Of a stretch of 64,000 bases of DNA, positions 30,971 through 42,447 are shown in pieces (within the stretch, counting starts at the first letter, position 1; every line of letters starts with the position of its first letter). A model generated the notes under the pieces. It did not search any database. It was not told the DNA's origin and saw only the letters and a list, made by a program, of their open reading frames with translations. The translations under genes were made by a program, and so were the position numbers. Where the stretch lies: assembly GCA_030602715.1 (NCBI GenBank), contig JAUVZD010000001.1:270213-334212 (forward strand), written 5' to 3'. The DNA comes from Candidatus Coatesbacteria bacterium. Lineage in GTDB: Bacteria > RBG-13-66-14 > B26-G2 > JAUVZD01.

Positions 30971-31381
30971 ATGAGAGGAATCGCTAAAAAGATGAAGAGT
31001 GCTATAATAATAATCTTCTCCCTCCTGCTGGTTCCCGCAACCATCTGGGGACAGGAGATGGTGATAGATACATTTTACGCTTATCCCAATCCCTTCTCCT
31101 GCGAAGACATCCTGAATATAGTGCTGAAATTCACCGGTCAGCCCCACACAGTTTCTGCAACCCTGCAGGTATTTGACCAGGTTGGTGACCTGGTAACCAC
31201 AATAGCCGAGGACCGGCAGGTTACTTCCAATACAAAAGTAAGAATCACCTGGGATGGATTGGACGAGAACGGCGAACGACCCAATCCGGGGGGCTACTTC
31301 ATCCGACTGCAAATGGAAGCTGACACCGGGGAGAGGATAAGTGAGATCTACAAGGTGGTATATTTAGAGGTCAGCAAATGA
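30971..31381 (+). CDS. Small secreted protein consisting only of a FlgD-Ig-like / T9SS C-terminal-sorting-domain-like module
   Basis: Signal peptide, then YAYPNPFS..VLKF.....VSATLQVFDQVGDLVTTI......VRITWDGLDENGERPNPGGYFIRL, matching the YPNPF...vyD..G..V...W.G.d..G....sGvYfyrL pattern of Por_Secre_tail/FlgD Ig-like domains. Starts 1 nt after the upstream stop. Confidence 0.65.
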   Translation: MRGIAKKMKSAIIIIFSLLLVPATIWGQEMVIDTFYAYPNPFSCEDILNIVLKFTGQPHTVSATLQVFDQVGDLVTTIAEDRQVTSNTKVRITWDGLDENGERPNPGGYFIRLQMEADTGERISEIYKVVYLEVSK

Positions 31382-33060
31382 AGCCCCAATCCACAATAAC
31401 CCTCCTCCTCCTGTGTATCAGCTTGGCGCTCCCCTCACAGTCATCCGCTTATGTGGGCGGGCAAAGCGACCTATTCTACGGCGCTAGTGGGGGGCGCCCC
31501 ACCGCCATGGGCGGTGCCTACATCGCCCTCTCCGACGACAGCGTGGGCTTCAATTATAATCCTGCGGGGATAGCCTTCATCACCCAACATCATATAAACT
31601 TTTCCTACTCACTGCGCTTCACGGAGGGAAGTGATTTTCAGGAGTTCTCCTATGCCGGACCGATACCACCCATAATCAACCTGGGCGCATCTCTGGAGAG
31701 GCTTTCCTTCGGGGAGGTGGAGTGGCGCAATCCCGGTGGTAAGCTGGTGGGAAGTTACACCAGCTCAAATATCCGTTTCTCCTTCGGCGGGGCAAGGGCG
31801 TTTTTTGGCATCTTCTCCCTGGGTGGAAAGGTCTCCTACGAGAAATTTAGTGCCGCAGATCAGGAAGATTCACACCCGGACATCAGTATAGGCTTCCAGT
31901 TGCGCCCCGGGGCAGACCCGGAGGAGGGCAGAAGGGGAAACTTCTGCCTGGCTGGCGTCCTTTACGGCACCAACCCCCTGCAGGGGAGCTTCGGCGCCTC
32001 CTTCACTTATGATATAGCAACCCTCAGCGGTCAGGTGGACGCCATCACCGAAGGAATTTATCACCTCCGCTTCGGCGGGGAGCTCTCACTCATAGATTCC
32101 TTTGCCATCCGTGCTGGGTTGGACGACTCAAGTCCCACCTTCGGTATAGGCGTGAAGGCAGGCGGTATCTCCATTGATTACTCCTACGCTTACAAGGAGC
32201 TGGGGACCATTCACACCGCAACGCTGGGTTTCGTCTTCGGTCCTGACCTAACCAGTATCGCCCTCAGGAAGAAACGGATTAAACTGTTGTTGCAGGAGGG
32301 GAAATACCATCTGCAAGTGAAAAATTATACCCTGGCAATAGAGCGCTTTGAGAACGTCCTCTCCTGGGATGAGGAGAACTACGAAGCCAGGGAGCTGTTG
32401 CAGAAAGCCCGTTTGGAGATGCTCCTTGAGGAGAGAGGGGGACTTCTGGAAGCCGGGGAGTATGAGCGGGCTCTGGAGCTCCTCCATCAGGCGAAAGACC
32501 TGGACCCGCAGAACAAGCGCATAGACGGTCACATTGAGGCAACGCTGGAGGCTATCCGCAAACGGGAGTGGGCATACATTGAGCAAGAACATATCTGGGA
32601 GCTTTACGCACAAGCCAGTGAACAGGTCAGAAAGCTCAACCTGTATAGAGCGGTTGGAATTTTAGAGGAGATACTTGAGCTTGACCCCGACAACTCATTC
32701 ATCAAAGACCGCTTAAAGGAAGTGCGGCTGAAGATTACGCCAGTCGCTGTAGTGCCCACGGTGGAGATTACCGCAGACATAATCTCCACCTATGAAGCGG
32801 GAGTGGCGGCGATAGACTCCGGTCGGCTGAACGAAGGCATAAGCCTTCTGGAGGGGGTATATTCCCAGGTGGGCGGATATGAGAGCACGGTCAGCAAACT
32901 CAACGACGGCTACTTCTATCTGGGCATGGACAGCTACAGCCGAGGTCGCCTGAGGGAGGCTATCGGCTACTGGCAGAGGATTCTGGCTCTGGACCCGGGG
33001 GACGCCCAGGCAACTAAACTGATAGACAAAGCCCAGAAGGAATTAGCGGGGATGGAATAG
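31378..33060 (+). CDS. Putative outer-membrane beta-barrel-like protein (FadL/PorV-like N-terminal motif) fused to C-terminal TPR-like repeats
   Basis: Signal peptide; N-terminal half Gly/aromatic-rich with GGRPTAMGGAYIALSDDSVGFNYNPAGIAF (FadL/OMPP1-type motif); C-terminal ~250 aa helical repeats (LDPQN, LDPDN, LDPGD periodicity). ATGA overlap with the upstream gene. Confidence 0.45.
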   Translation: MKPQSTITLLLLCISLALPSQSSAYVGGQSDLFYGASGGRPTAMGGAYIALSDDSVGFNYNPAGIAFITQHHINFSYSLRFTEGSDFQEFSYAGPIPPIINLGASLERLSFGEVEWRNPGGKLVGSYTSSNIRFSFGGARAFFGIFSLGGKVSYEKFSAADQEDSHPDISIGFQLRPGADPEEGRRGNFCLAGVLYGTNPLQGSFGASFTYDIATLSGQVDAITEGIYHLRFGGELSLIDSFAIRAGLDDSSPTFGIGVKAGGISIDYSYAYKELGTIHTATLGFVFGPDLTSIALRKKRIKLLLQEGKYHLQVKNYTLAIERFENVLSWDEENYEARELLQKARLEMLLEERGGLLEAGEYERALELLHQAKDLDPQNKRIDGHIEATLEAIRKREWAYIEQEHIWELYAQASEQVRKLNLYRAVGILEEILELDPDNSFIKDRLKEVRLKITPVAVVPTVEITADIISTYEAGVAAIDSGRLNEGISLLEGVYSQVGGYESTVSKLNDGYFYLGMDSYSRGRLREAIGYWQRILALDPGDAQATKLIDKAQKELAGME

Positions 33061-33063
33061 AAG

Positions 33064-34656
33064 ATGGCGGAGCCGAAAAATACAATCGCTTTGGTGAACG
33101 AGAAAGATAAGCCCAAAGAACGCTATATTTCTCTACGCTTACAGATTGCCGCCGCAACCGTCTTGCTAATAGTGGCGACAACCATCACTCTGGGCACTTT
33201 CTCCCTGCGCCATGAACGCCAAGCACTCCACCGCGAGTTCATCGCCCGCATTCTTGCCCAGACCCGCTCAGTGGCGGGGACCAGCTCCGGCTCCATTCTG
33301 CTGGATATAGCGGAAACATATACCCAGCCCCTTGCCCTCAGTACTCTGGAGGAGAACGAGGATTGCATTGATATCACCATCGTGAACAAGGAGAATATTA
33401 TCTACGGGGCAAAAGAGACTTTTCTTCTGGGCAAACCCTACCAACCGGAGCAGGACCTGGCTGCTATTGGGGGGGATTTCGGACAACTCAGCGGTGAGAC
33501 CGTCGCCGAGAAAGGAGACCTGATATATATCAGTGTCCCCATAAGAAAGGGGGAGATGGGAACGATAGGTTACGTCTATGCTTCCTACAGCAGTGCCAAC
33601 CTAACCCATATGCTCACCCTGGCCCGAAACAACCTGATAATTATCTCCCTGATCGTCCTGGTGGTGGGAATATTCGCCGCTTATTTTGTCTCCATGATGC
33701 TGGTAAGTCCGGTGCGCAAGCTGGCAAATGCCGCCCGCCAGGTGGGGATGGGAAACTTTGATGTTACCGTGGAGGCAAAAACACGCAACGAACTGGGGCA
33801 GTTAGCGAACACCTTCAACCGTATGGCAGAGAGTCTGAAAGAAGCCCAGAAGATGATTTTGGAGAAGAACCGCATGGAGCAGGAGCTGACCATCGCCCGC
33901 CAACTGCAGAAGAGCTTCCTGCCCAGCATATTCCCCCACTTGCAGGGGGTGGATATCTATGCCCGTTGCCGCACCGCTCAGGCGGTAGGCGGAGACTACT
34001 ACGATTTCCTGGAGCTGGATGAGGACAACATCGGGCTATTGATAGCGGATATCTCCGGCAAGGGTTTATCCGGTCTCATAATCATGAGCATGGTGCGCAA
34101 TGTTCTCCGCTCGCAAGCCCGCAGGTATCAGTCGCCACGTCGGGCGTTGATAGAGACCAACACCCTGCTCACCCCGGACTTTCAAAAGGGGCGCTTCGTC
34201 ACCGCCTTCCTGGGGACCTACCACCGCCCCACCCGACTGCTCACCTACGCCAATGCCGGACACACTCCCCTGCTCTACTACCGTGCCGATGACAACATCG
34301 TTGCCATGCTGGAGAAATCGGGGCGACCTATAGGTCTCTTCTCCAGCGAGGTCTTTGAAGAGCGCCTGGAGGAAGGACAGCTGGAGCTTTCGGAGAACGA
34401 CCTCATCTTACTCTTCACCGACGGGATAACCGAGGCGATTAACAACGCCGGTCAACTATACGGCGAAAGCCGTCTATTGAAGCTCATCCCCCACCTCAAG
34501 GACCTTGATGCAAAAAGCATAGTGGAGGAGGTCTTCAACAATGTACACCGCTTCCGGGGCAAAGGCGGCACCTTAAGCGACGACATAACTATTATGGTTA
34601 TGAGAACCACAGCCCAAAGTGAGCTGGAAAAGCTCTATACAGCCCAGGAGATATAA
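33064..34656 (+). CDS. Membrane sensor PP2C phosphatase (two TM + periplasmic domain + HAMP + SpoIIE/RsbU-type PP2C)
   Basis: TM1 AAATVLLIVATTITLGTF, TM2 LIIISLIVLVVGIFAAYFV; HAMP (SPVRKLANAARQVGMGNFDVTVEAKTRNELGQLANTFNRMAESL); PP2C motifs VGGDYYDF, LLIADISGKGLSG, FTDGITEA. Confidence 0.85.
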   Translation: MAEPKNTIALVNEKDKPKERYISLRLQIAAATVLLIVATTITLGTFSLRHERQALHREFIARILAQTRSVAGTSSGSILLDIAETYTQPLALSTLEENEDCIDITIVNKENIIYGAKETFLLGKPYQPEQDLAAIGGDFGQLSGETVAEKGDLIYISVPIRKGEMGTIGYVYASYSSANLTHMLTLARNNLIIISLIVLVVGIFAAYFVSMMLVSPVRKLANAARQVGMGNFDVTVEAKTRNELGQLANTFNRMAESLKEAQKMILEKNRMEQELTIARQLQKSFLPSIFPHLQGVDIYARCRTAQAVGGDYYDFLELDEDNIGLLIADISGKGLSGLIIMSMVRNVLRSQARRYQSPRRALIETNTLLTPDFQKGRFVTAFLGTYHRPTRLLTYANAGHTPLLYYRADDNIVAMLEKSGRPIGLFSSEVFEERLEEGQLELSENDLILLFTDGITEAINNAGQLYGESRLLKLIPHLKDLDAKSIVEEVFNNVHRFRGKGGTLSDDITIMVMRTTAQSELEKLYTAQEI

Positions 34657-34680
34657 AAGCATATGCGGAGGATATAGTAA

Positions 34681-35148
34681 ATGCCAAGGGACAATAAGAA
34701 TATTCAGGAATACTCAATTCGGATAGGAAGCAACCCCAAATCGCTGGGACATGCCCGAGACTTCGTGATTCAATTGCTAAAAGAAAGCGGTTTTTCCAAC
34801 GACGAGATAAGCATTCTGGAGCTGGTGACCTATGAGGCTTGTGCCAACTCCATAGAACACGCTTACAGCAATCAACCGGATTTCTATGTAGATTTGAATA
34901 TCCAGATTCGCGGGCGGGAGGTGTTCATCAAAATTGAGGATAGCGGTCAGGAATTCCAACCCGGGGATATCCACCCGCTGGACATCGGCGATCGCATAGA
35001 CCGCCGTGCCAGCAGGGGTATGGGCTTGCCGTTGATGAAGACTTTGATGGATGAGGTGACAATTGAACGCACATTTGACAACCATAATCGCATTACCATG
35101 AGAAAGGATTTCTCCAAAAAAAAGAAAGCGCCTAAAGGAAAAACTTAG
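34681..35148 (+). CDS. RsbW/SpoIIAB-like anti-sigma regulatory factor (GHKL serine kinase)
   Basis: N-box LVTYEACANSIEHAY, G-box RGMGLPLMKTLMDEV; 155 aa; 24 nt after the phosphatase gene. Confidence 0.85.
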   Translation: MPRDNKNIQEYSIRIGSNPKSLGHARDFVIQLLKESGFSNDEISILELVTYEACANSIEHAYSNQPDFYVDLNIQIRGREVFIKIEDSGQEFQPGDIHPLDIGDRIDRRASRGMGLPLMKTLMDEVTIERTFDNHNRITMRKDFSKKKKAPKGKT

Positions 35149-35156
35149 GAGGAATA

Positions 35157-37160
35157 GTGAGAGAGCTGGATATATCTCTGAGTAAAAAAACGGAAGAGGG
35201 AATCTACACCTTTAAGCTGGCCGGGAGTTTGGGGGTAGAGGGCTCCCGGGGACTGACGAAATTGTTTGACGCCTGCCTTAAGGAGAAAGTCTATAGCATT
35301 ATCATTGACCTCTCCCAGGTTGATTTCATCTCCAGCGCCGGGATGGGGGTATTCCTCTCCGTTGTCGGTGAACTGAGAGAACACAATGGGGATATTATCT
35401 TCATGGCTATGCCCGATAAAATCAGAAAGATATTCTCCTCCCTGGATGTTCTGGACTACTTTGAAAACTATAAGAGCGAGGATAAAGCCAGAACCGCTCT
35501 AAGGAAGAAGGGGAAAAAGACAACCGGGGAGTTAGCAAAAACAAAGAAAGCTTTAAGCAAATTAGACCATTTGCAGTTCATCTCCGAATCTACCAAAAGT
35601 ATCTCCCTGGAGAAGAAAAGCGTTCTGGTCATCCCCTCCATCATGGAATCGCTGATGAGCCACCTGGATGTGGAAGATTTACTCTTTGTACCCATCTCCA
35701 TACCACTGCGCCAGGAGTTTGACTTCATCAGTCTGGGCCGGGGCAATCTGCGGGAGATAACCGTGGAGGAGACCCAGCAGTTAAGCTCTCTTTTAAAAAA
35801 CTACCAGGCGCCGGTTCAGCTGTCCGAACTACCCGATGTCTATGAGGATATCTATGTAAAGCTGGCTCGTACCGGCTGTGAATTGGTAGTGCCCATCTTC
35901 TCCGAGGAGATCCTCTCCTCCCTGCTCTTTTTAGGGCAAAGGGGGTTGGGAGCCCGCTATCAAAAAGAAGACATGCTCATGCTCCAAACCATAGCCGGAA
36001 TGCTCGGCTCCGCCATTCAAAACCATCGTCTGCAGAAGCGCCTGGATGATGCAGTCTCCTCCGAAGAGCTGGAGAACGCCCATGTTCGCCTGGAGAGGAA
36101 GGTGCAAGAACTGGAGACCTTGTTCATCGTCAGCCAACAACTGGGCAGTTCCATGGAAGTTGATGAACTGCTCAACAACTTCCTGGTGGTAACTGTGGGG
36201 CAGATGGGCACCAACAAAGGGCTTATCTTCCTCACCGACGAGGGGGATTACAATCTGACCTGCAAAGCCTTCAAGGGTCAATTCGCCCGCATTCCCTTGG
36301 ATGTCACCCTCCCCATAGACGGCAAGCTGGTCCAGTTGGTATCAAGCGCAAATCACCCCATTAAGGCGCACGACAAAGATGTCTTCAACAAGTTGAGTTC
36401 CGACGAGCGTAAGTTCATCACCGACAACGACATCTCCCTTCTGGGAGCCATCAAATATAAAGGCGAGCTTCGGGGCTTGAACGCTGTAGGTTCCAAGGTG
36501 AGCAAGAAGGAGTATACTACCGAGGATTTTGACCTCTTCTCCATCCTCAATTTCCAGGCAGCCACCGCCCTGGAGAATGTCAAACTCTTTGACAAGCTGA
36601 AAAATGTTTACAGCGGGGTGATGAGGGCTCTGGTGACCGCACTGGAAGCGAAAGACCCCCACTACAAGGGACATACCGAACGGGTCACCCGCCTATCCGC
36701 CCAGATGGGGGAAAAGTTGGGTTTCAATAATGAGAGACTGCGCAACCTCATCTTCGGCGCTGTATTGCACGATATCGGTAGAGTGGGGGTGCGGGAGTCC
36801 ATCCTCAATAAGGTTGAACCCCTGACCGAAGAGGAGAAGGAGGAACTCATGCGCCATCCGGTCATCGGCACGGAGATACTCAAGGAGGTTGAATTCTTCA
36901 AGGGTTCATTGGCTATAGTCCGCAACCATCACGAGAACTACGACGGTAGCGGCTATCCCGATGGTCTCGCCGGTGAATCCATCCCCATTGAAGTGCGCAT
37001 CGTGACCCTAGCCAACGCCTACGAGGCGATGACCTCCACCCGCCGTTATCGGGGCGCATTGACCAATAAAGAGGCTATAGAGGAGATCCGCAGAAATGCA
37101 GGCACCCAGTTTGACCCCAACCTGGCAAAAATCTTCATCAACCTGATATCCAGCAAGTAA
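35157..37160 (+). CDS. STAS (anti-sigma-antagonist-like) - GAF - HD-GYP fusion protein (putative phosphorylation-controlled c-di-GMP phosphodiesterase)
   Basis: N-terminal STAS with phospho-acceptor context IIIDLSQVDFISSAGMGVF; central GAF-like region; C-terminal HD-GYP with KDPHYKGHTERV, LHDIGRVGV (HD) and HHENYDGSGYPDGL (GYP). Confidence 0.85.
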   Translation: MRELDISLSKKTEEGIYTFKLAGSLGVEGSRGLTKLFDACLKEKVYSIIIDLSQVDFISSAGMGVFLSVVGELREHNGDIIFMAMPDKIRKIFSSLDVLDYFENYKSEDKARTALRKKGKKTTGELAKTKKALSKLDHLQFISESTKSISLEKKSVLVIPSIMESLMSHLDVEDLLFVPISIPLRQEFDFISLGRGNLREITVEETQQLSSLLKNYQAPVQLSELPDVYEDIYVKLARTGCELVVPIFSEEILSSLLFLGQRGLGARYQKEDMLMLQTIAGMLGSAIQNHRLQKRLDDAVSSEELENAHVRLERKVQELETLFIVSQQLGSSMEVDELLNNFLVVTVGQMGTNKGLIFLTDEGDYNLTCKAFKGQFARIPLDVTLPIDGKLVQLVSSANHPIKAHDKDVFNKLSSDERKFITDNDISLLGAIKYKGELRGLNAVGSKVSKKEYTTEDFDLFSILNFQAATALENVKLFDKLKNVYSGVMRALVTALEAKDPHYKGHTERVTRLSAQMGEKLGFNNERLRNLIFGAVLHDIGRVGVRESILNKVEPLTEEEKEELMRHPVIGTEILKEVEFFKGSLAIVRNHHENYDGSGYPDGLAGESIPIEVRIVTLANAYEAMTSTRRYRGALTNKEAIEEIRRNAGTQFDPNLAKIFINLISSK

Positions 37161-39094: not shown

Positions 39095-39131
39095 AAAAGC
39101 CGGCGCCCCGAACTTCCGGGGCGCCTTGTTG
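39095..39131. terminator. Bidirectional rho-independent terminator between convergent operons
   Basis: aaaaaagcc-GGCGCCCCG-aacttc-CGGGGCGCC-ttgttgtat: A-tract, perfect 9-bp GC stem, T-rich tail. Confidence 0.65.
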
Positions 39132-39155: not shown

Positions 39156-39806
39156 TTACTCCTCTTCCTTCTTCTCCGTCTTCTTGAAGGGCTCATAAAC
39201 ACCGCCTTCCCTCGGCGGCTGCAACATGTGCTTCAACATGGTATTGCCGGCGCGGATATCCTGGATAACGCTCAGGATTTCCCGCTGAAAGGTCTCCTCA
39301 AAGATCAGGAACCTGCCCAGCTGGATATCATCCAGCACCTCCCCCATTGAAACGAATATATCAGCTTCCTGCCCCACCAGACTGGCTTTGGTCGCCAGAA
39401 GCTCCTCCGTCTTGTCCTTCACTTCATCCACATCCGGTTCGGCGTTGTTCAATAAGTCCAGCAACTCCCTTATCGTACCCTCCCGCTCAATGAAATGCTC
39501 CTGGCGTACATCCTCCAATTGTCTGTATAATGGGAAGAATGTGGTTGACTGCTCCACGGAGAGCCCCAGCACTTCTGTCATACGCCAGATCTTTATCGCC
39601 TCCAGCCGCTCCTCGGCATCCCTGACCTTCTCCTCAAATTCCGCCCCAAATCCAAGGTCATAGGCGCCCTCTGAAGCGCCCCAATAGCCCCAGTAAAACT
39701 CCTGGATGAAGGTGTCCTCCTGGGCAAATCCCACGGAGGCGATTAAGACCATAAAGGAAAGGGTGAGGAATGCAACCACAATCCGAGGGCGATTATCCAT
39801 AGCCAA
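39156..39806 (-). CDS. Periplasmic CpxP/Spy-like (LTXXQ-motif) protein, tentative
   Basis: Signal peptide; helical and acidic; LSVEQSTTFFPLYRQLEDVRQ resembles the LTXXQ motif. Last gene of the ECF sigma/anti-sigma operon. Confidence 0.45.
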   Translation of the reverse strand: MAMDNRPRIVVAFLTLSFMVLIASVGFAQEDTFIQEFYWGYWGASEGAYDLGFGAEFEEKVRDAEERLEAIKIWRMTEVLGLSVEQSTTFFPLYRQLEDVRQEHFIEREGTIRELLDLLNNAEPDVDEVKDKTEELLATKASLVGQEADIFVSMGEVLDDIQLGRFLIFEETFQREILSVIQDIRAGNTMLKHMLQPPREGGVYEPFKKTEKKEEE

Positions 39807-39886
39807 CCTCCTGGAATTCCCGTTGTAAATCTACACAAATCAGGTACAATCTATGGGAAGAATAAAAGCTGGAATTTAATTTTTGC

Positions 39887-40978
39887 CTACTCTCCCAAAA
39901 TGGCAAATACTTTGGTTCTCTCCTCATGGCTCAGGCTGCCTATCACCACATATATTGACGAACCATTCCTTCTGTTGGTGAACTCCTCCAGGAGCACGTT
40001 CTCCAGATAGACCGCATCCTCAGGGGAGATTGATGAGGAGAAGGTAACATAGGTCCCTTCACCGCTGATCTCTGTGCCGGAAGTGACCACATAGGGTAAA
40101 CCGCTACGCACCACCATCTCATCAACCACCAAAGGCAACATCGTGCCCGATATCATCCTCGCAGTAACCGGCATAACCGGGTCCTTTACCGCATAAAAAT
40201 CGGTGATATCCCCATCGGATACCCGGAAGAACCCACCGGAAGAGGAGACGCTGTCCATCAGGTCCCTATCAAATGTTATCACGGGGGAGACATCCGTCTC
40301 CGGGACAGCCATCTCTGTGAAGGGAACCTCCTCCCGGGAATAACGCCCAAAAGTATACTCTAGCTCGTCAGAGACAACCCCTTCTGCGGGAGCGTGGTAA
40401 ATATCAGCACCGCTCAATGCCCCAAGGGTTGTAGATACCGCCTCCTTCTCAGCGGTTAAAGTATGCGGCGGCTTAACGTGCACAAGGGTGGGAACCGGCG
40501 CCTCTTCCTCGGTAACCAGGCCGGGAGCCTCCTCCGTCTTGGGCTTTAACCCTTCAAAATCCCTCGTCTCCAGGGATGAAATATCAAGACCCTCAGGCTC
40601 CTGCGTGTAAGAAAGAACATAGGGAAGAATGTAGAAGCCGGCAAGTCCCACCAGGATAATACCGGCTATTGTTGCCGCTGCAAGGAGCGTCCTGGGCTTC
40701 AAGAGGGGCTTCATTGACAGCACCCTGCCGGCACCCCTCCCCTCAGCTTTAGCCCTCTCTCTCACCCGGATGGCTAGAGTGGACATAAACAGCACCCCGG
40801 CGGAAGCGACTTCCATATCGCCCACCATAGAGAGAAGCTCTCTACCCTGCCTCAAGTAATCACGGCAGAGGGGACATTCCCTCAGATGCTCCTGGACCGA
40901 AAGGGGAAGCTCCTCCTCACTGGTGAGGGTCTCGTCTATAAGATACTGTATTTTTTCACACTTCATATCACTCACCAA
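39887..40978 (-). CDS. Membrane-spanning anti-sigma factor with N-terminal zinc-finger motif
   Basis: CEKIQ..(x)..HLRECPLCRDY (H-x3-C-x2-C), single TM (LLAAATIAGIILVGLAGFYIL), periplasmic C-terminal domain; immediately follows and overlaps the ECF sigma gene. Alternative start MKCEKI at 40966. Confidence 0.6.
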   Translation of the reverse strand: MVSDMKCEKIQYLIDETLTSEEELPLSVQEHLRECPLCRDYLRQGRELLSMVGDMEVASAGVLFMSTLAIRVRERAKAEGRGAGRVLSMKPLLKPRTLLAAATIAGIILVGLAGFYILPYVLSYTQEPEGLDISSLETRDFEGLKPKTEEAPGLVTEEEAPVPTLVHVKPPHTLTAEKEAVSTTLGALSGADIYHAPAEGVVSDELEYTFGRYSREEVPFTEMAVPETDVSPVITFDRDLMDSVSSSGGFFRVSDGDITDFYAVKDPVMPVTARMISGTMLPLVVDEMVVRSGLPYVVTSGTEISGEGTYVTFSSSISPEDAVYLENVLLEEFTNRRNGSSIYVVIGSLSHEERTKVFAILGE

Positions 40979-41556
40979 TCTGTTTCACCCAAAGCGGCGA
41001 CCGAGTCGCCCAGAATCTTGCGCAGTTTGCCCAAGGCAAATGCTCCACTGGCCTTCACCGAGCCTTCACTTATCCCCAGAGTTGAAGCGACCTCGGCGAC
41101 GGAGAGCCCGTTAAGATGGCGCATTTGAAACACCTCTCGTTGCCTGCTGGGCAGGGAATCTATCGCCCGGCACAGTCGCTCATACACCTGCCTCGCCACC
41201 GCCCTCCTGAAAGGATTATCTATACTCTGGTGGAAATTGATGACCACTTCCAGGGAGACCTCCTGTTCCCGACGAATCACCTTACGCAATCGATTCTTGG
41301 CGGTGTTGACCGCGATGCGTAGAAGCCAGGTCTTGAAACTGGATAATCCCTTGAAGGTATGGGCTTTGCGGTAAAGTTTGAAGAAGACATCCTCGGTAAC
41401 TTCCTCGGCGGCTTCACGATTGCGCAGGATGGATATCACTGTGGCAAAGACCGCCTCCCTGTACTTTGCTACCAGTGCCTCAAAGGCGGTCTCATCACCA
41501 CCTAAGAACTCCACAAGAAGTCTGTCATCGCCGACCCCGGGCGTGCGCCCCGCCAT
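40972..41556 (-). CDS. ECF-type RNA polymerase sigma-70 family sigma factor
   Basis: Region 2 (FEALVAKYREAVFATVISILRNREAAEEVTEDVFFKLYRKAHTF) and region 4 HTH (QREVFQMRHLNGLSVAEVASTLGISEGSVKA). Confidence 0.9.
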   Translation of the reverse strand: MAGRTPGVGDDRLLVEFLGGDETAFEALVAKYREAVFATVISILRNREAAEEVTEDVFFKLYRKAHTFKGLSSFKTWLLRIAVNTAKNRLRKVIRREQEVSLEVVINFHQSIDNPFRRAVARQVYERLCRAIDSLPSRQREVFQMRHLNGLSVAEVASTLGISEGSVKASGAFALGKLRKILGDSVAALGETDW

Positions 41557-41652
41557 GAGGCCATCCTCTCGTTTAATTAGACCAAACTGCTATAGTCGGG
41601 GTTTAATCCCCCTACCCAAAAGAACCGCCTTGCTCTATCCCTGCCTTGACCG

Positions 41653-41994
41653 CTATCCCTGGTCCCCTTCTTCCCTTTCTTTGGACATTTTTACCTTCTC
41701 AATCTCTTCTTCGGTATCTTTTATCTCCTTCTCCAGAGCCTTCACCTCGTCAAGCAGGCGAGACACCTCCGGGTCGGCTAAAACCCCCTTCTTTTTCCTG
41801 CTGACCAGGTCATATATCCGCCCACCCAACTCAAAGAAGTTATCGTGAATCTTGCGATGAACTCCAATTATGCGGATGCGCAATCTGGCAATCTGGGTCA
41901 GTTCTCCGGTCTTCTCCAGAAGGGTGGAGATGCCCTCCCGGGTAGCTGTATAACCCTCATCCAGCGTCTTGCTAATCCTCTCCCACAGCGTCAT
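41653..41994 (-). CDS. Hypothetical small coiled-coil protein
   Basis: 113 aa, K/E-rich C-terminal helix; no motif recognised; co-directional with flanking genes. Confidence 0.35.
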   Translation of the reverse strand: MTLWERISKTLDEGYTATREGISTLLEKTGELTQIARLRIRIIGVHRKIHDNFFELGGRIYDLVSRKKKGVLADPEVSRLLDEVKALEKEIKDTEEEIEKVKMSKEREEGDQG

Positions 41995-42072: not shown

Positions 42073-42447
42073 CTACTTGCTCTCATCCAGGAGAGTTTTA
42101 ATCTCCCGCACCGCCCGGTTTATGGTACTGCGACATCTCATATGCGGGTCAGCCAGAACCACCAATGTAAGCACGGTATCGTTCAGGGGGATATAACGGC
42201 AGACTAGAGAATAACCCTCCTCAAGACGGATCACCGTCTCCAGGGCTTCCAGGTCAAAAAGCTTCTTACTCACAGTGCGAATATTCTTTAAACTGGGGGA
42301 AAGGACCACAGCGGTGGGCAGAGGTCCAGCCCCGATGCGGTGGGCTACCTCAAATCCCTCAAAATCTATCAACTCGGCAAGCCCCATTCCCTGCTGCACC
42401 AGATTGAGCATAACCCCGTCAAGTTTAGCGATTATACTGGTCTTCAT
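42073..42447 (-). CDS. Roadblock/LC7-like domain protein, tentative
   Basis: 124 aa; size and pattern (GVMLNLVQQGMGLAELIDFEGFEVA .. LTLVVLADPHMRCRSTINRAVREIKTLL) resemble MglB/roadblock fold proteins; by resemblance only. Confidence 0.4.
   Translation of the reverse strand: MKTSIIAKLDGVMLNLVQQGMGLAELIDFEGFEVAHRIGAGPLPTAVVLSPSLKNIRTVSKKLFDLEALETVIRLEEGYSLVCRYIPLNDTVLTLVVLADPHMRCRSTINRAVREIKTLLDESK

Follow-up and report, generated by a model that had tools for sequence, protein, structure and literature searches.

Introduction

ECF281, a group derived from the original ECF20/ECF113, is described as having a ZAS anti-sigma factor encoded at position +1 and a PF13801 protein at position +2, and ECF281, ECF290 and ECF291 are suggested to relate to heavy-metal stress (Casas-Pastor et al. 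2021, NAR, PMC7826278). In Phocaeicola vulgatus, deletion of the anti-sigma gene cirZ induces cirY together with the co-transcribed spy, and the CirY regulon also takes in two downstream peptidoglycan-related genes (PMC13114119). Literature cited in that paper presents Spy as a pure chaperone and CpxP as an inhibitor and adaptor. An operon of the order RpoE8-hypothetical-periplasmic heavy metal sensor has been described in A. brasilense (PMC12826043). RpoE-RseA-RseB of E. coli and AlgU-MucA-MucB of Pseudomonas are autoregulated systems in which a single-pass anti-sigma factor is accompanied by a modulating periplasmic third protein, whereas CpxP, Spy and ZraP of E. coli are placed under the two-component systems CpxAR, BaeSR and ZraSR, respectively.

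Here we analyze a minus-strand locus within a 64-kb stretch of DNA (the window) from an uncultured Coatesbacteria-related lineage. We regard it as probable that it is an autoregulated ECF sigma/membrane anti-sigma envelope-stress operon, the third gene of which would encode a co-transcribed periplasmic protein of the CpxP/Spy family, a core reading backed by profile matches, by remote homology, by structure and by comparison of genomic contexts. On the basis of the published description of its genomic context, ECF281 shares gene order and domain types with this operon, which differs by a +2 protein too divergent to match PF13801 and by an additional conserved 113-aa gene upstream; its anti-sigma factor is also about twice as long as those of the Bacteroidota, Ignavibacteriales and Acidobacteriota loci. 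CirY/CirZ-Spy, likewise compared by description, belongs to another phylum and is similarly an autoregulated sigma/anti-sigma pair co-transcribed with a Spy-like periplasmic protein. The locus would share with the RpoE and AlgU systems its autoregulation, its single-pass anti-sigma factor and its modulating third protein, although RseA falls outside the ZAS class and RseB bears no resemblance to CpxP.

Organization of the operon

The positions of the features are gathered in Table 1. The boundaries of the three minus-strand ORFs were those given by an earlier sequence-only reading, which had proposed an ECF sigma/anti-sigma/CpxP-like operon lying about 2 kb from an HD-GYP operon, a distance which agrees with the end of the HD-GYP gene at position 37160.

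Table 1. Features of the operon and its surroundings in the window
Feature	Position	Strand	Description or basis
GC-rich hairpin terminator common to convergent operons	39102..39125	both	10-bp stem (9 G-C), loop 4
Very divergent CpxP/Spy/ZraP-superfamily protein, 214 aa	39156..39800	-	Remote homology, structure model
Gene 2/gene 3 spacer	39807..39886	-	80 nt; AGGAGG ribosome-binding site
Single-pass membrane anti-sigma factor	39887..40978	-	ZAS-like N-terminal domain, TM helix, linker, C-terminal domain
ECF (group IV) sigma factor, 194 aa	40972..41556	-	Pfam and NCBIfam profiles
Candidate ECF-type promoter	41578..41606	-	TTAAAC (-35), 18-nt spacer, GTCTA (-10)
Cytoplasmic coiled-coil protein of 113 aa (ORF113)	41653..41994	-	Conserved, directly upstream of promoter

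The overlap claimed between the first two genes depends on which start codon of the anti-sigma gene is used. Three are possible: GTG at 40975 (362 aa), the form carried by public gene calls, TTG at 40978 (363 aa) and ATG at 40966 (359 aa), which agrees with the N-terminal M-[KD]-C conserved among the orthologs. The claim holds with the GTG, which creates a 4-nt GTGA overlap, and gives way to a 5-nt gap with the ATG.

Genes 1 to 3 are tightly coupled, and a single terminator follows gene 3. A search for terminator-like sites in the spacer between genes 2 and 3 found none, and the RNA fold of this spacer was no better than that of shuffled sequences (z -0.62), so that co-transcription of both genes can be proposed. 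When the spacer was compared with those of the orthologs, only the ribosome-binding site appeared conserved, the window version having a 33-nt insertion. Rfam searches and RNA folding of the intergenic regions of the operon gave nothing significant; a match to the sX6 RNA was dismissed (19 bits, for a gathering score of 40). Regarding the bidirectional terminator proposed for the convergent operons, the hairpin located between the two gene ends was flagged on both strands, but a clean T-run, GGCTTTTTTG, follows it on the minus strand only, the plus-strand tail being weaker (TTGTTGTATA).

The same order of sigma, ZAS and CpxP-like genes recurs at loci of Ca. Coatesbacteria, Bacteroidota, Ignavibacteriales, Thermodesulfobacteriota and Acidobacteriota, with proteins that are only 21-48% identical.

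The sigma factor and its anti-sigma factor

The product of the first gene is a member of the ECF (group IV) sigma-70 family, scoring above curated thresholds with Sigma70_r2 (PF04542; 52.7 bits, cutoff 24), Sigma70_r4_2 (PF08281; 56.3 bits, cutoff 25.7) and TIGR02937 (106.8 bits, cutoff 42.9). The two Pfam profiles were those put forward for its confirmation in the sequence-only reading, whose assignment is borne out. Its length leaves no room for sigma1.1 or sigma3. The nearest solved structures are those of AlgU/RpoE (6in7, 1or7; E about 1e-20), followed by CnrH (7e-9), and the orthologs share 77, 78, 48, 45 and 35% identity with it.

As had been noticed from the letters, the second ORF encodes an H-x3-C-x2-C motif (HLRECPLC); it also encodes one strong hydrophobic segment. 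A further Cys, 24 residues upstream, extends the motif to C-x23-H-x3-C-x2-C, and the predicted ZAS ligands all lie within the N-terminal ~50 residues. The four positions (C7/H31/C35/C38) are invariant in six lineages, in which the proteins are 21-39% identical overall. Confirmation by the proposed zf-HC2 profile (PF13490) was indirect: the window protein gave no Pfam match even at E<=1, while three of the six orthologs matched this family, with a best E-value of 1.5e-4. NCBIfam anti-sigma models matched the window protein weakly (E 1e-3; 19 bits for NF052375, cutoff 100), and sequence searches of Pfam, NCBIfam and PDB returned nothing usable. Inhibition of the sigma factor by this protein is predicted from the conserved adjacency and coupling of the two genes, a pairing which is maintained across phyla, as would be expected of a sigma factor controlled by the adjacent anti-sigma.

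Hydropathy analysis and inspection, on which all signal peptide and TM calls in this work are based, placed the TM helix at about residues 91-124, the sole strong hydrophobic segment of the protein. It is followed by a variable low-complexity linker and by a ~110-aa C-terminal periplasmic domain, conserved in alignments A6/A9. This long periplasmic region, with its terminal domain, is a lineage-specific feature: the long form measures 363-414 aa, as compared to 146-256 aa at the Bacteroidota, Ignavibacteriales and Acidobacteriota loci. The C-terminal domain found no match in sequence databases or PDB, and its single-sequence AF2 model was unusable (pLDDT 41). In an indexed homolog search the full-length anti-sigma returned only itself and the alignment of the C-terminal domain returned nothing.

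The third gene encodes a very divergent CpxP/Spy relative

The third protein is 214 aa long when translated from the ATG, with an alternative TTG start at 39806. Its N-terminus resembles a signal peptide, in which two Arg precede a hydrophobic segment (KD19 of 2.55) and a cleavage-type site VGFA|QE, replaced by AFA|QDD in the orthologs; the protein is accordingly predicted to reach the periplasm by means of a Sec signal peptide.

Direct searches of Pfam, NCBIfam and PDB with the protein sequence gave no match, nor did a comparison of the protein and its close orthologs with Pfam at gathering score, and a scan of the genome collection with the close family recovered no relatives. An exhaustive profile search, on the other hand, yielded 789 relatives; among 62 relatives, PF13801 was matched by 27 and PF07813 by 14. 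The connection with these families is made by three bridging sequences (P0016, P0017 and P0019), which are found by the A1 profile with E-values of 1e-15 to 1e-14 and pass the gathering scores of PF07813 or PF13801. In agreement with this, hhalign aligned A1 with A12, built from bona fide members, over 138 columns (99.8%, E 1.4e-27). Searching PDB with the A4 profile retrieved 5ihf at 2e-4, then Spy, CpxP and ZraP; 5ihf was named 'VirG-like protein' by its depositor, and we take it to be CpxP-like.

The AF2 model shows a core of four long helices (pLDDT 80-90). Foldseek searches with this model gave ZraP as the best match (probability 1.0, TM-target 0.73), then CpxP and CnrX, with weak E-values of 0.1-0.9. 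A helical-hairpin fold like that of CpxP, Spy, ZraP and CnrX may be proposed for the gene 3 product, which retains two L-x3-Q motifs. These putative equivalents of LTXXQ, LSVEQ (aa 80-84) and LDDIQ (aa 156-160), occupy equivalent positions and have not kept the Thr; L78, L80, L156 and Q160 hardly vary across a 65-sequence alignment. Neither the close family nor the wider alignment showed a conserved His or Cys column. Besides lacking conserved metal ligands, the protein differs from CpxP, Spy, ZraP and CnrX by lineage-specific N- and C-terminal motifs, YWGYWG and GGVYxPFKK, which occur in the same lineages as the long periplasmic region of the anti-sigma factor, these lineages being few. Unlike the E. 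coli proteins, which answer to two-component systems, it is encoded in an ECF sigma operon.

Taken together, these results indicate that the third gene product is a very divergent member of the CpxP/Spy/'Metal_resist' superfamily, with demonstrable homology. The periplasmic LTXXQ-type protein of the sequence-only reading is therefore retained as a secreted-type member of the CpxP superfamily, and loses its literal LTXXQ label, since its motifs are LSVEQ/LDDIQ and it matches neither PF07813 nor PF13801. The PF07813 test proposed there fails on the window protein itself and succeeds through the bridging sequences.

A putative autoregulatory promoter upstream of the sigma gene

The absence of a canonical autoregulatory promoter had been remarked on as atypical. 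GGAAC-N17-TCTAA is indeed absent upstream of sigma, and its one match in the rest of the window is below chance expectation. A candidate variant nevertheless lies 21 nt ahead of the ATG of the sigma gene: TTAAAC at 41606-41601 and GTCTA at 41582-41578, where the next base is A (GTCTAA). TTAAAC-N18-GTCTA has a single exact match within the window, and no further copy was found there when one mismatch was allowed. Across the aligned intergenic regions of the orthologs, neither ATTAAAC nor GTCTAATTAAACGAGAGGA varies, and the spacer between them is unconserved. The motif stands with the identical 18-nt spacing upstream of the orthologous sigma gene in eight lineages; it was located there in L001, L004, L009/L014/L096, L011, L013, L015 and L023.

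This phylogenetic footprint points to a putative autoregulatory ECF promoter of variant form, in which TTAAAC takes the place of GGAAC; the predicted site combines an AAC-containing -35 with a -10 of the GTC/TCTAA type. The -10 element TCTAA is common to the E. coli RpoE and Pseudomonas AlgU systems, while the -35 departs from the RpoE-type GGAACTT. AAC and TCTAA are 19 nt apart here, against 18 nt at the rpoE P2 promoter of E. coli.

Upstream of this site, ORF113 is conserved at 51-68% identity in four lineages, always immediately upstream of sigma. Pfam, NCBIfam and PDB gave no assignment for it, and profile searches against PDB and Pfam produced coiled-coil noise; a metagenome scan recovered the lineages already seen and no others. 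ORF113 is a possible fourth component of the module, of uncertain membership. We also noticed that the SpoIIE/HATPase/STAS-HD-GYP partner-switching cluster remains adjacent to the operon despite inversion.

Discussion

According to the model that we favor, the zinc-finger-type cytoplasmic domain of the anti-sigma factor would retain sigma at the membrane in unstressed cells, as suggested by family knowledge and by the conserved C...HxxxCxxC motif. An envelope or periplasmic signal, perceived through the ~240-aa extracytoplasmic part, would lead to inactivation of the anti-sigma factor, most likely by regulated proteolysis of the RseA type. The released sigma factor would then transcribe its own operon from TTAAAC-N18-GTCTA, a role to which the motif and its conservation point. 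Activation of the operon would increase the amount of the secreted CpxP-like protein, which may function in the periplasm as an ATP-independent chaperone or adaptor, and may also bind the periplasmic domain of the anti-sigma factor as a feedback modulator, by analogy with CpxP-CpxA, RseB-RseA and CnrX-CnrY. As the CpxP-like protein has no conserved His or Cys, a metal signal is less likely than protein-folding or envelope damage. In contrast to the CirY regulon, no peptidoglycan-related genes follow the operon, as gene 3 runs straight into the terminator.

A metal sensor of the CnrYXH/ZraP type, in which the CpxP-like protein would bind metal and relay the signal to the anti-sigma factor for the activation of metal resistance by sigma, is suggested by the Pfam name 'Heavy-metal resistance' (PF13801) borne by relatives of the third protein, by the heavy-metal stress proposed for ECF281, ECF290 and ECF291 (PMC7826278) and by the presence of CnrX and ZraP among the best Foldseek matches. 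We nevertheless consider it quite improbable. It is disfavored by the want of conserved His/Cys columns in the close family and in the wider alignment, CnrX and ZraP having His-rich metal sites, and by the absence of metal efflux or resistance genes near the operon. In addition, sigma is closer to RpoE/AlgU than to CnrH, and the anti-sigma factor is of the ZAS type at +1 rather than CnrY-like at -2. A formal assignment to the CnrYXH type (ECF291) was rejected on the type and position of the anti-sigma factor, no conserved His or Cys column and no nearby efflux genes being found. For want of conserved metal ligands, 'heavy-metal resistance' is probably a misleading label in this case.

The zinc ligands could alternatively be the sensor, as in RsrA, with thiol stress oxidizing the zinc-binding Cys of the anti-sigma factor to release sigma, and with the periplasmic parts as accessories. 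The invariance of C-x23-H-x3-C-x2-C in six lineages and the zf-HC2 matches of the orthologs are compatible with such a cytoplasmic redox switch, but in membrane ZAS proteins the zinc site generally has a structural role and is not a redox sensor, and this anti-sigma factor is anchored in the membrane and carries a conserved periplasmic domain. Since the co-transcribed product is also of the periplasmic chaperone type and not a thiol-repair protein, the redox switch seems very improbable to us. Within the favored envelope-stress reading, the CpxP-like protein could be restricted to one role, either output chaperone only or, conversely, signaling adaptor only. The contrast between Spy as a pure chaperone and CpxP as an inhibitor and adaptor, drawn in the literature cited in PMC13114119, and the occurrence of YWGYWG and GGVYxPFKK alongside the long anti-sigma periplasmic region would fit such sub-variants, although this co-occurrence is based on few lineages; we give either of them hardly any weight.

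A four-component variant can also be imagined for the window lineage along with its Coatesbacteria-like relatives. ORF113 would be an extra regulator of the sigma/anti-sigma pair, the C-terminal domain of the anti-sigma factor a new domain for sensing or docking, to which the YWGYWG and GGVYxPFKK extensions of the CpxP-like protein would bind, and the module might be functionally coupled to the partner-switching cluster. We put this forward as a speculative and rather unlikely elaboration of the envelope-stress operon.

The locus is a real but ordinary, divergent example of a published architecture, and in itself it changes little. It extends the widespread sigma/ZAS/CpxP-Spy-like arrangement to an uncultured Coatesbacteria-related lineage, and provides in TTAAAC-N18-GTCTA a clean cross-phylum motif which may be used for genome-wide regulon prediction. 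As CpxP/Spy proteins linked to ECF sigma factors diverge far below the reach of the Pfam LTXXQ and Metal_resist models, modules of this kind are under-annotated in candidate phyla.

Results

The three genes of the operon proposed by the sequence-only reading were found precisely between 41556 and 39156, as minus-strand ORFs encoding an ECF sigma factor, an anti-sigma factor and a CpxP-like protein (gene 3). The overlap claimed between the first two genes depends on the start codon: it exists if the anti-sigma gene starts at GTG 40975 (GTGA overlap), giving the 362-aa product of public gene calls, but becomes a 5-nt gap with ATG 40966, a start which agrees with the M-[KD]-C that orthologs conserve at their N-terminus. 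Since the spacer between the anti-sigma gene and gene 3 yielded no terminator, no conserved element and no stable RNA fold, co-transcription of both genes is the simplest reading of the sequence. Compared with the related loci L001 and L004, this spacer carries a 33-nt insertion holding inverted-repeat fragments (AAATTCC...GGAATTCC); the RNA fold there does not reach significance (z -0.62). Beyond gene 3, a 10-bp hairpin containing 9 G-C pairs divides the operon from convergent TPR/polysaccharide-deacetylase genes, which follow a STAS-GAF-HD-GYP gene on the plus strand. The hairpin thought to be a bidirectional terminator does lie between the convergent genes, but a clean T-run is present on the minus-strand side only.

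Coordinates of the operon, its candidate regulatory elements and neighbouring features.
Feature	Window	Strand	Product or start	Related loci
ECF sigma	40972-41556	-	194 aa
Anti-sigma	39887-40978	-	363 aa with TTG start
Gene 3, CpxP-like	39156-39806	-	216 aa from TTG; 214 aa from ATG 39800, preceded by AGGAGG
Anti-sigma/gene 3 spacer	39807-39886	-
Hairpin	39102-39125
TTAAAC-N18-GTCNA motif	41606-41578
ORF113	41653-41994	-	113 aa	L001 5733-6068; L004 2201-2539; L009 1805-2131; L013 39-389
ORF between ThiL and ORF113	42073-42447	-	124 aa	L001 5321-5656; L004 1740-2123
Partner-switching cluster	31378-37160	+		L009 5056-8516 (+)

The first gene encodes an ECF sigma factor, matching Pfam Sigma70_r2 and Sigma70_r4_2 as well as TIGR02937 (106.8 bits, cutoff 42.9). 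Its closest solved structures are AlgU/RpoE (E about 1e-20), CnrH being farther (7e-9), and its best named relative belongs to the Ca. Coatesbacteria MAG QMNJ01000015 (48% identity).

Alignment of the sigma upstream region with orthologous regions revealed an invariant ATTAAAC, an 18-nt unconserved spacer, then GTCTAATTAAACGAGAGGA, invariant as far as the RBS. The strict motif TTAAAC-N18-GTCNA occurs once in the window (chance expectation about 0.2 exact, 0.47 with one mismatch) and once each, with the same spacing and directly upstream of sigma, in L001, L004, L009/L014/L096, L011, L013, L015 (a Bacteroidota MAG) and L023 (Ignavibacteriales). L017 (Thermodesulfovibrionia) has a variant with a shorter spacer, and the truncated same-species copies L005-L008 contain the motif, their sequence stopping before gene 3. 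None of the screened sigma loci without a CpxP-like gene carried the strict motif. The canonical GGAAC-N16-TCtaA is literally missing, as had been noticed, but the inference that the operon has no autoregulatory promoter is not supported, since the footprinted motif shows the features typical of ECF promoters, AAC at -35 and GTC/TCTAA at -10. We consider this conserved TTAAAC-N18-GTCTA a candidate autoregulatory ECF promoter.

The H-x3-C-x2-C motif expected of a membrane anti-sigma is present as HLRECPLC, with an extra Cys 24 residues upstream and one strong TM segment at about aa 91-124. The protein matched no Pfam model, NCBIfam anti-sigma models matched weakly (19 bits vs cutoff 100), and an indexed homolog search returned nothing beyond the query itself. 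Orthologs were gathered by synteny, via the neighbouring gene. Despite identities of 21-39%, they all retained the TM helix and C7, H31, C35 and C38 (363-aa TTG numbering; C6/H30/C34/C37 in the 362-aa GTG form, alignment A8), and 3 of 6 matched Pfam zf-HC2 (best E 1.5e-4). Past the membrane, a variable P/E/S/T-rich linker leads to a conserved C-terminal domain of ~110 aa, for which database searches detected no relatives and single-sequence AF2 gave a pLDDT of 41. Anti-sigma length is 363-414 aa in the window clade vs 146-256 aa in other phyla.

The gene 3 protein had no direct match in Pfam, NCBIfam or PDB, and none of its eight homologs from an indexed database (5.8-billion clusters) had a Pfam domain. 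An exhaustive HMMER search with the alignment of these eight recovered 789 relatives at E<=1e-3 (69 at <=1e-10), 160-200 aa long and matched over residues ~60-185. Among 62 relatives checked, 27 contained PF13801 (Metal_resist) and 14 PF07813 (LTXXQ). Three of the relatives are explicit bridges, matching the close-family profile A1 and scoring above Pfam gathering scores: P0016 (E 1.7e-15; LTXXQ 26.5 bits, cutoff 24.3), P0017 (E 4.3e-15; Metal_resist 31.0 bits, cutoff 29.2) and P0019 (E 1.4e-14; LTXXQ 26.2 bits, cutoff 24.3). With hhalign, the close family aligned to bona fide members over 138 columns (99.8% probability, E 1.4e-27). A wider profile retrieved from PDB 5ihf (E 2e-4), deposited only as "VirG-like protein" and which we take to be CpxP-like, then Spy, CpxP and ZraP. 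The AF2 model includes four long helices (core pLDDT 80-90), with ZraP, CpxP and CnrX as best Foldseek matches at weak E-values (0.1-0.9). LSVEQ and LDDIQ occupy the positions equivalent to LTXXQ, though neither retains the Thr; L78, L80, L156 and Q160 are near-invariant in a 65-sequence alignment, and the N-terminus resembles a Sec signal peptide. Assignment to LTXXQ-type periplasmic proteins thus holds at superfamily level, although the profiles suggested for its confirmation did not detect the protein. Two lineage-specific invariant motifs, YWGYWGA[ST]EG (~35-44, close to the N-terminus of the mature protein) and GGVY[EN]PFKK (~199-206, near the C-terminus), are missing in distant relatives and found in the same lineages as the long anti-sigma periplasmic region.

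The sigma/ZAS anti-sigma/CpxP-like order recurs in close relatives (L001-L004), a Ca. Coatesbacteria MAG (L014, layout as in L009; sigma identity 48%), metagenomic lineages (L011, L013), Bacteroidota (L015), Ignavibacteriales and Ignavibacteria (L023, L051), Thermodesulfobacteriota (L041) and Acidobacteriota (L044, L048, L065, L074). Also in Acidobacteriota, the HMM match is a long ORF right after sigma in L079 and lies upstream of sigma in L089. In Acidobacteriota the +2 proteins clearly belong to PF13801/PF07813 (57-59 bits); they are borderline in Bacteroidota (28.6 vs 29.2) and below Pfam detection in Coatesbacteria-like and window lineages. CpxP-like and sigma queries found no match to the window species or the L001/L004 sister lineage in GTDB r232 representative genomes. 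The presence of Omp85- and BamD/YbgF-like genes shows that the organism is a diderm, and Wzc-like and XrtA/PEP-CTERM-type amidotransferase-like proteins show that it has exopolysaccharide machinery.

ORF113, a cytoplasmic protein whose C-terminal half is coiled-coil, is encoded immediately upstream of the sigma promoter in all four lineages compared. Its conservation (51-68% identity) equals that of sigma and is far above that of the anti-sigma or CpxP-like protein. No family match was found in Pfam, NCBIfam or PDB, and ORF113 may belong to the module as a fourth component. The adjacent 124-aa ORF, syntenic in close relatives, had no family match either. The partner-switching cluster (TPR, HAMP-SpoIIE (PP2C), HATPase_c_2 and STAS-GAF-HD-GYP genes) adjoins the ECF module convergently. 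In L009, a Coatesbacteria-type locus which stops inside the HATPase_c_2 gene, the first three cluster genes adjoin the module downstream on the same strand, so the adjacency survived an inversion; it may reflect a functional link or only residual synteny.

Discussion

Very probably, these genes form an autoregulated ECF sigma/ZAS anti-sigma envelope-stress operon with a CpxP/Spy-type third product. Sigma would be sequestered by the membrane ZAS-type anti-sigma until an envelope signal acting on the periplasmic part of the latter led to its inactivation, presumably by proteolysis. Sigma would then transcribe its own operon from TTAAAC-N18-GTCTA, so that more of a CpxP/Spy-type periplasmic chaperone or adaptor would be made; this protein may also exert feedback on the anti-sigma. 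Of this model, the analysis establishes domain identities, topology signals, motif conservation and a conserved gene order; binding, proteolysis, promoter activity, chaperone function and feedback are inferred.

Metal sensing of the CnrX or ZraP kind, two proteins among the best, though weak, structural matches of the gene 3 model, is disfavoured because the gene 3 family has no conserved His or Cys column, no efflux genes lie near the operon and the anti-sigma is of a type other than CnrY. For a membrane ZAS protein whose periplasmic domain is conserved, a redox role like that of RsrA is unlikely. The long anti-sigma, the CpxP-like additions, ORF113 and the partner-switching neighbour could also mark a lineage-specific elaboration, which we regard as improbable; they provide no evidence that the system is of a new kind.

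The probable envelope-stress operon has an architecture of a known kind, given its precedents. ECF281 (ZAS anti-sigma at +1, PF13801 protein at +2) is alike in gene order and domain types, and ECF290 is similar to ECF281 but with an RskA-like anti-sigma (Casas-Pastor et al., PMC7826278). Phocaeicola vulgatus co-transcribes its ECF pair CirY/CirZ with a Spy-like gene, and there cirZ deletion induces cirY and spy (PMC13114119). An Azospirillum brasilense operon encodes RpoE8, a hypothetical protein plus a "periplasmic heavy metal sensor" (PMC12826043). The operon, recognised correctly in outline from sequence, is a divergent new member of this published architecture, and its sole supposedly atypical aspect, the missing promoter, is explained away.
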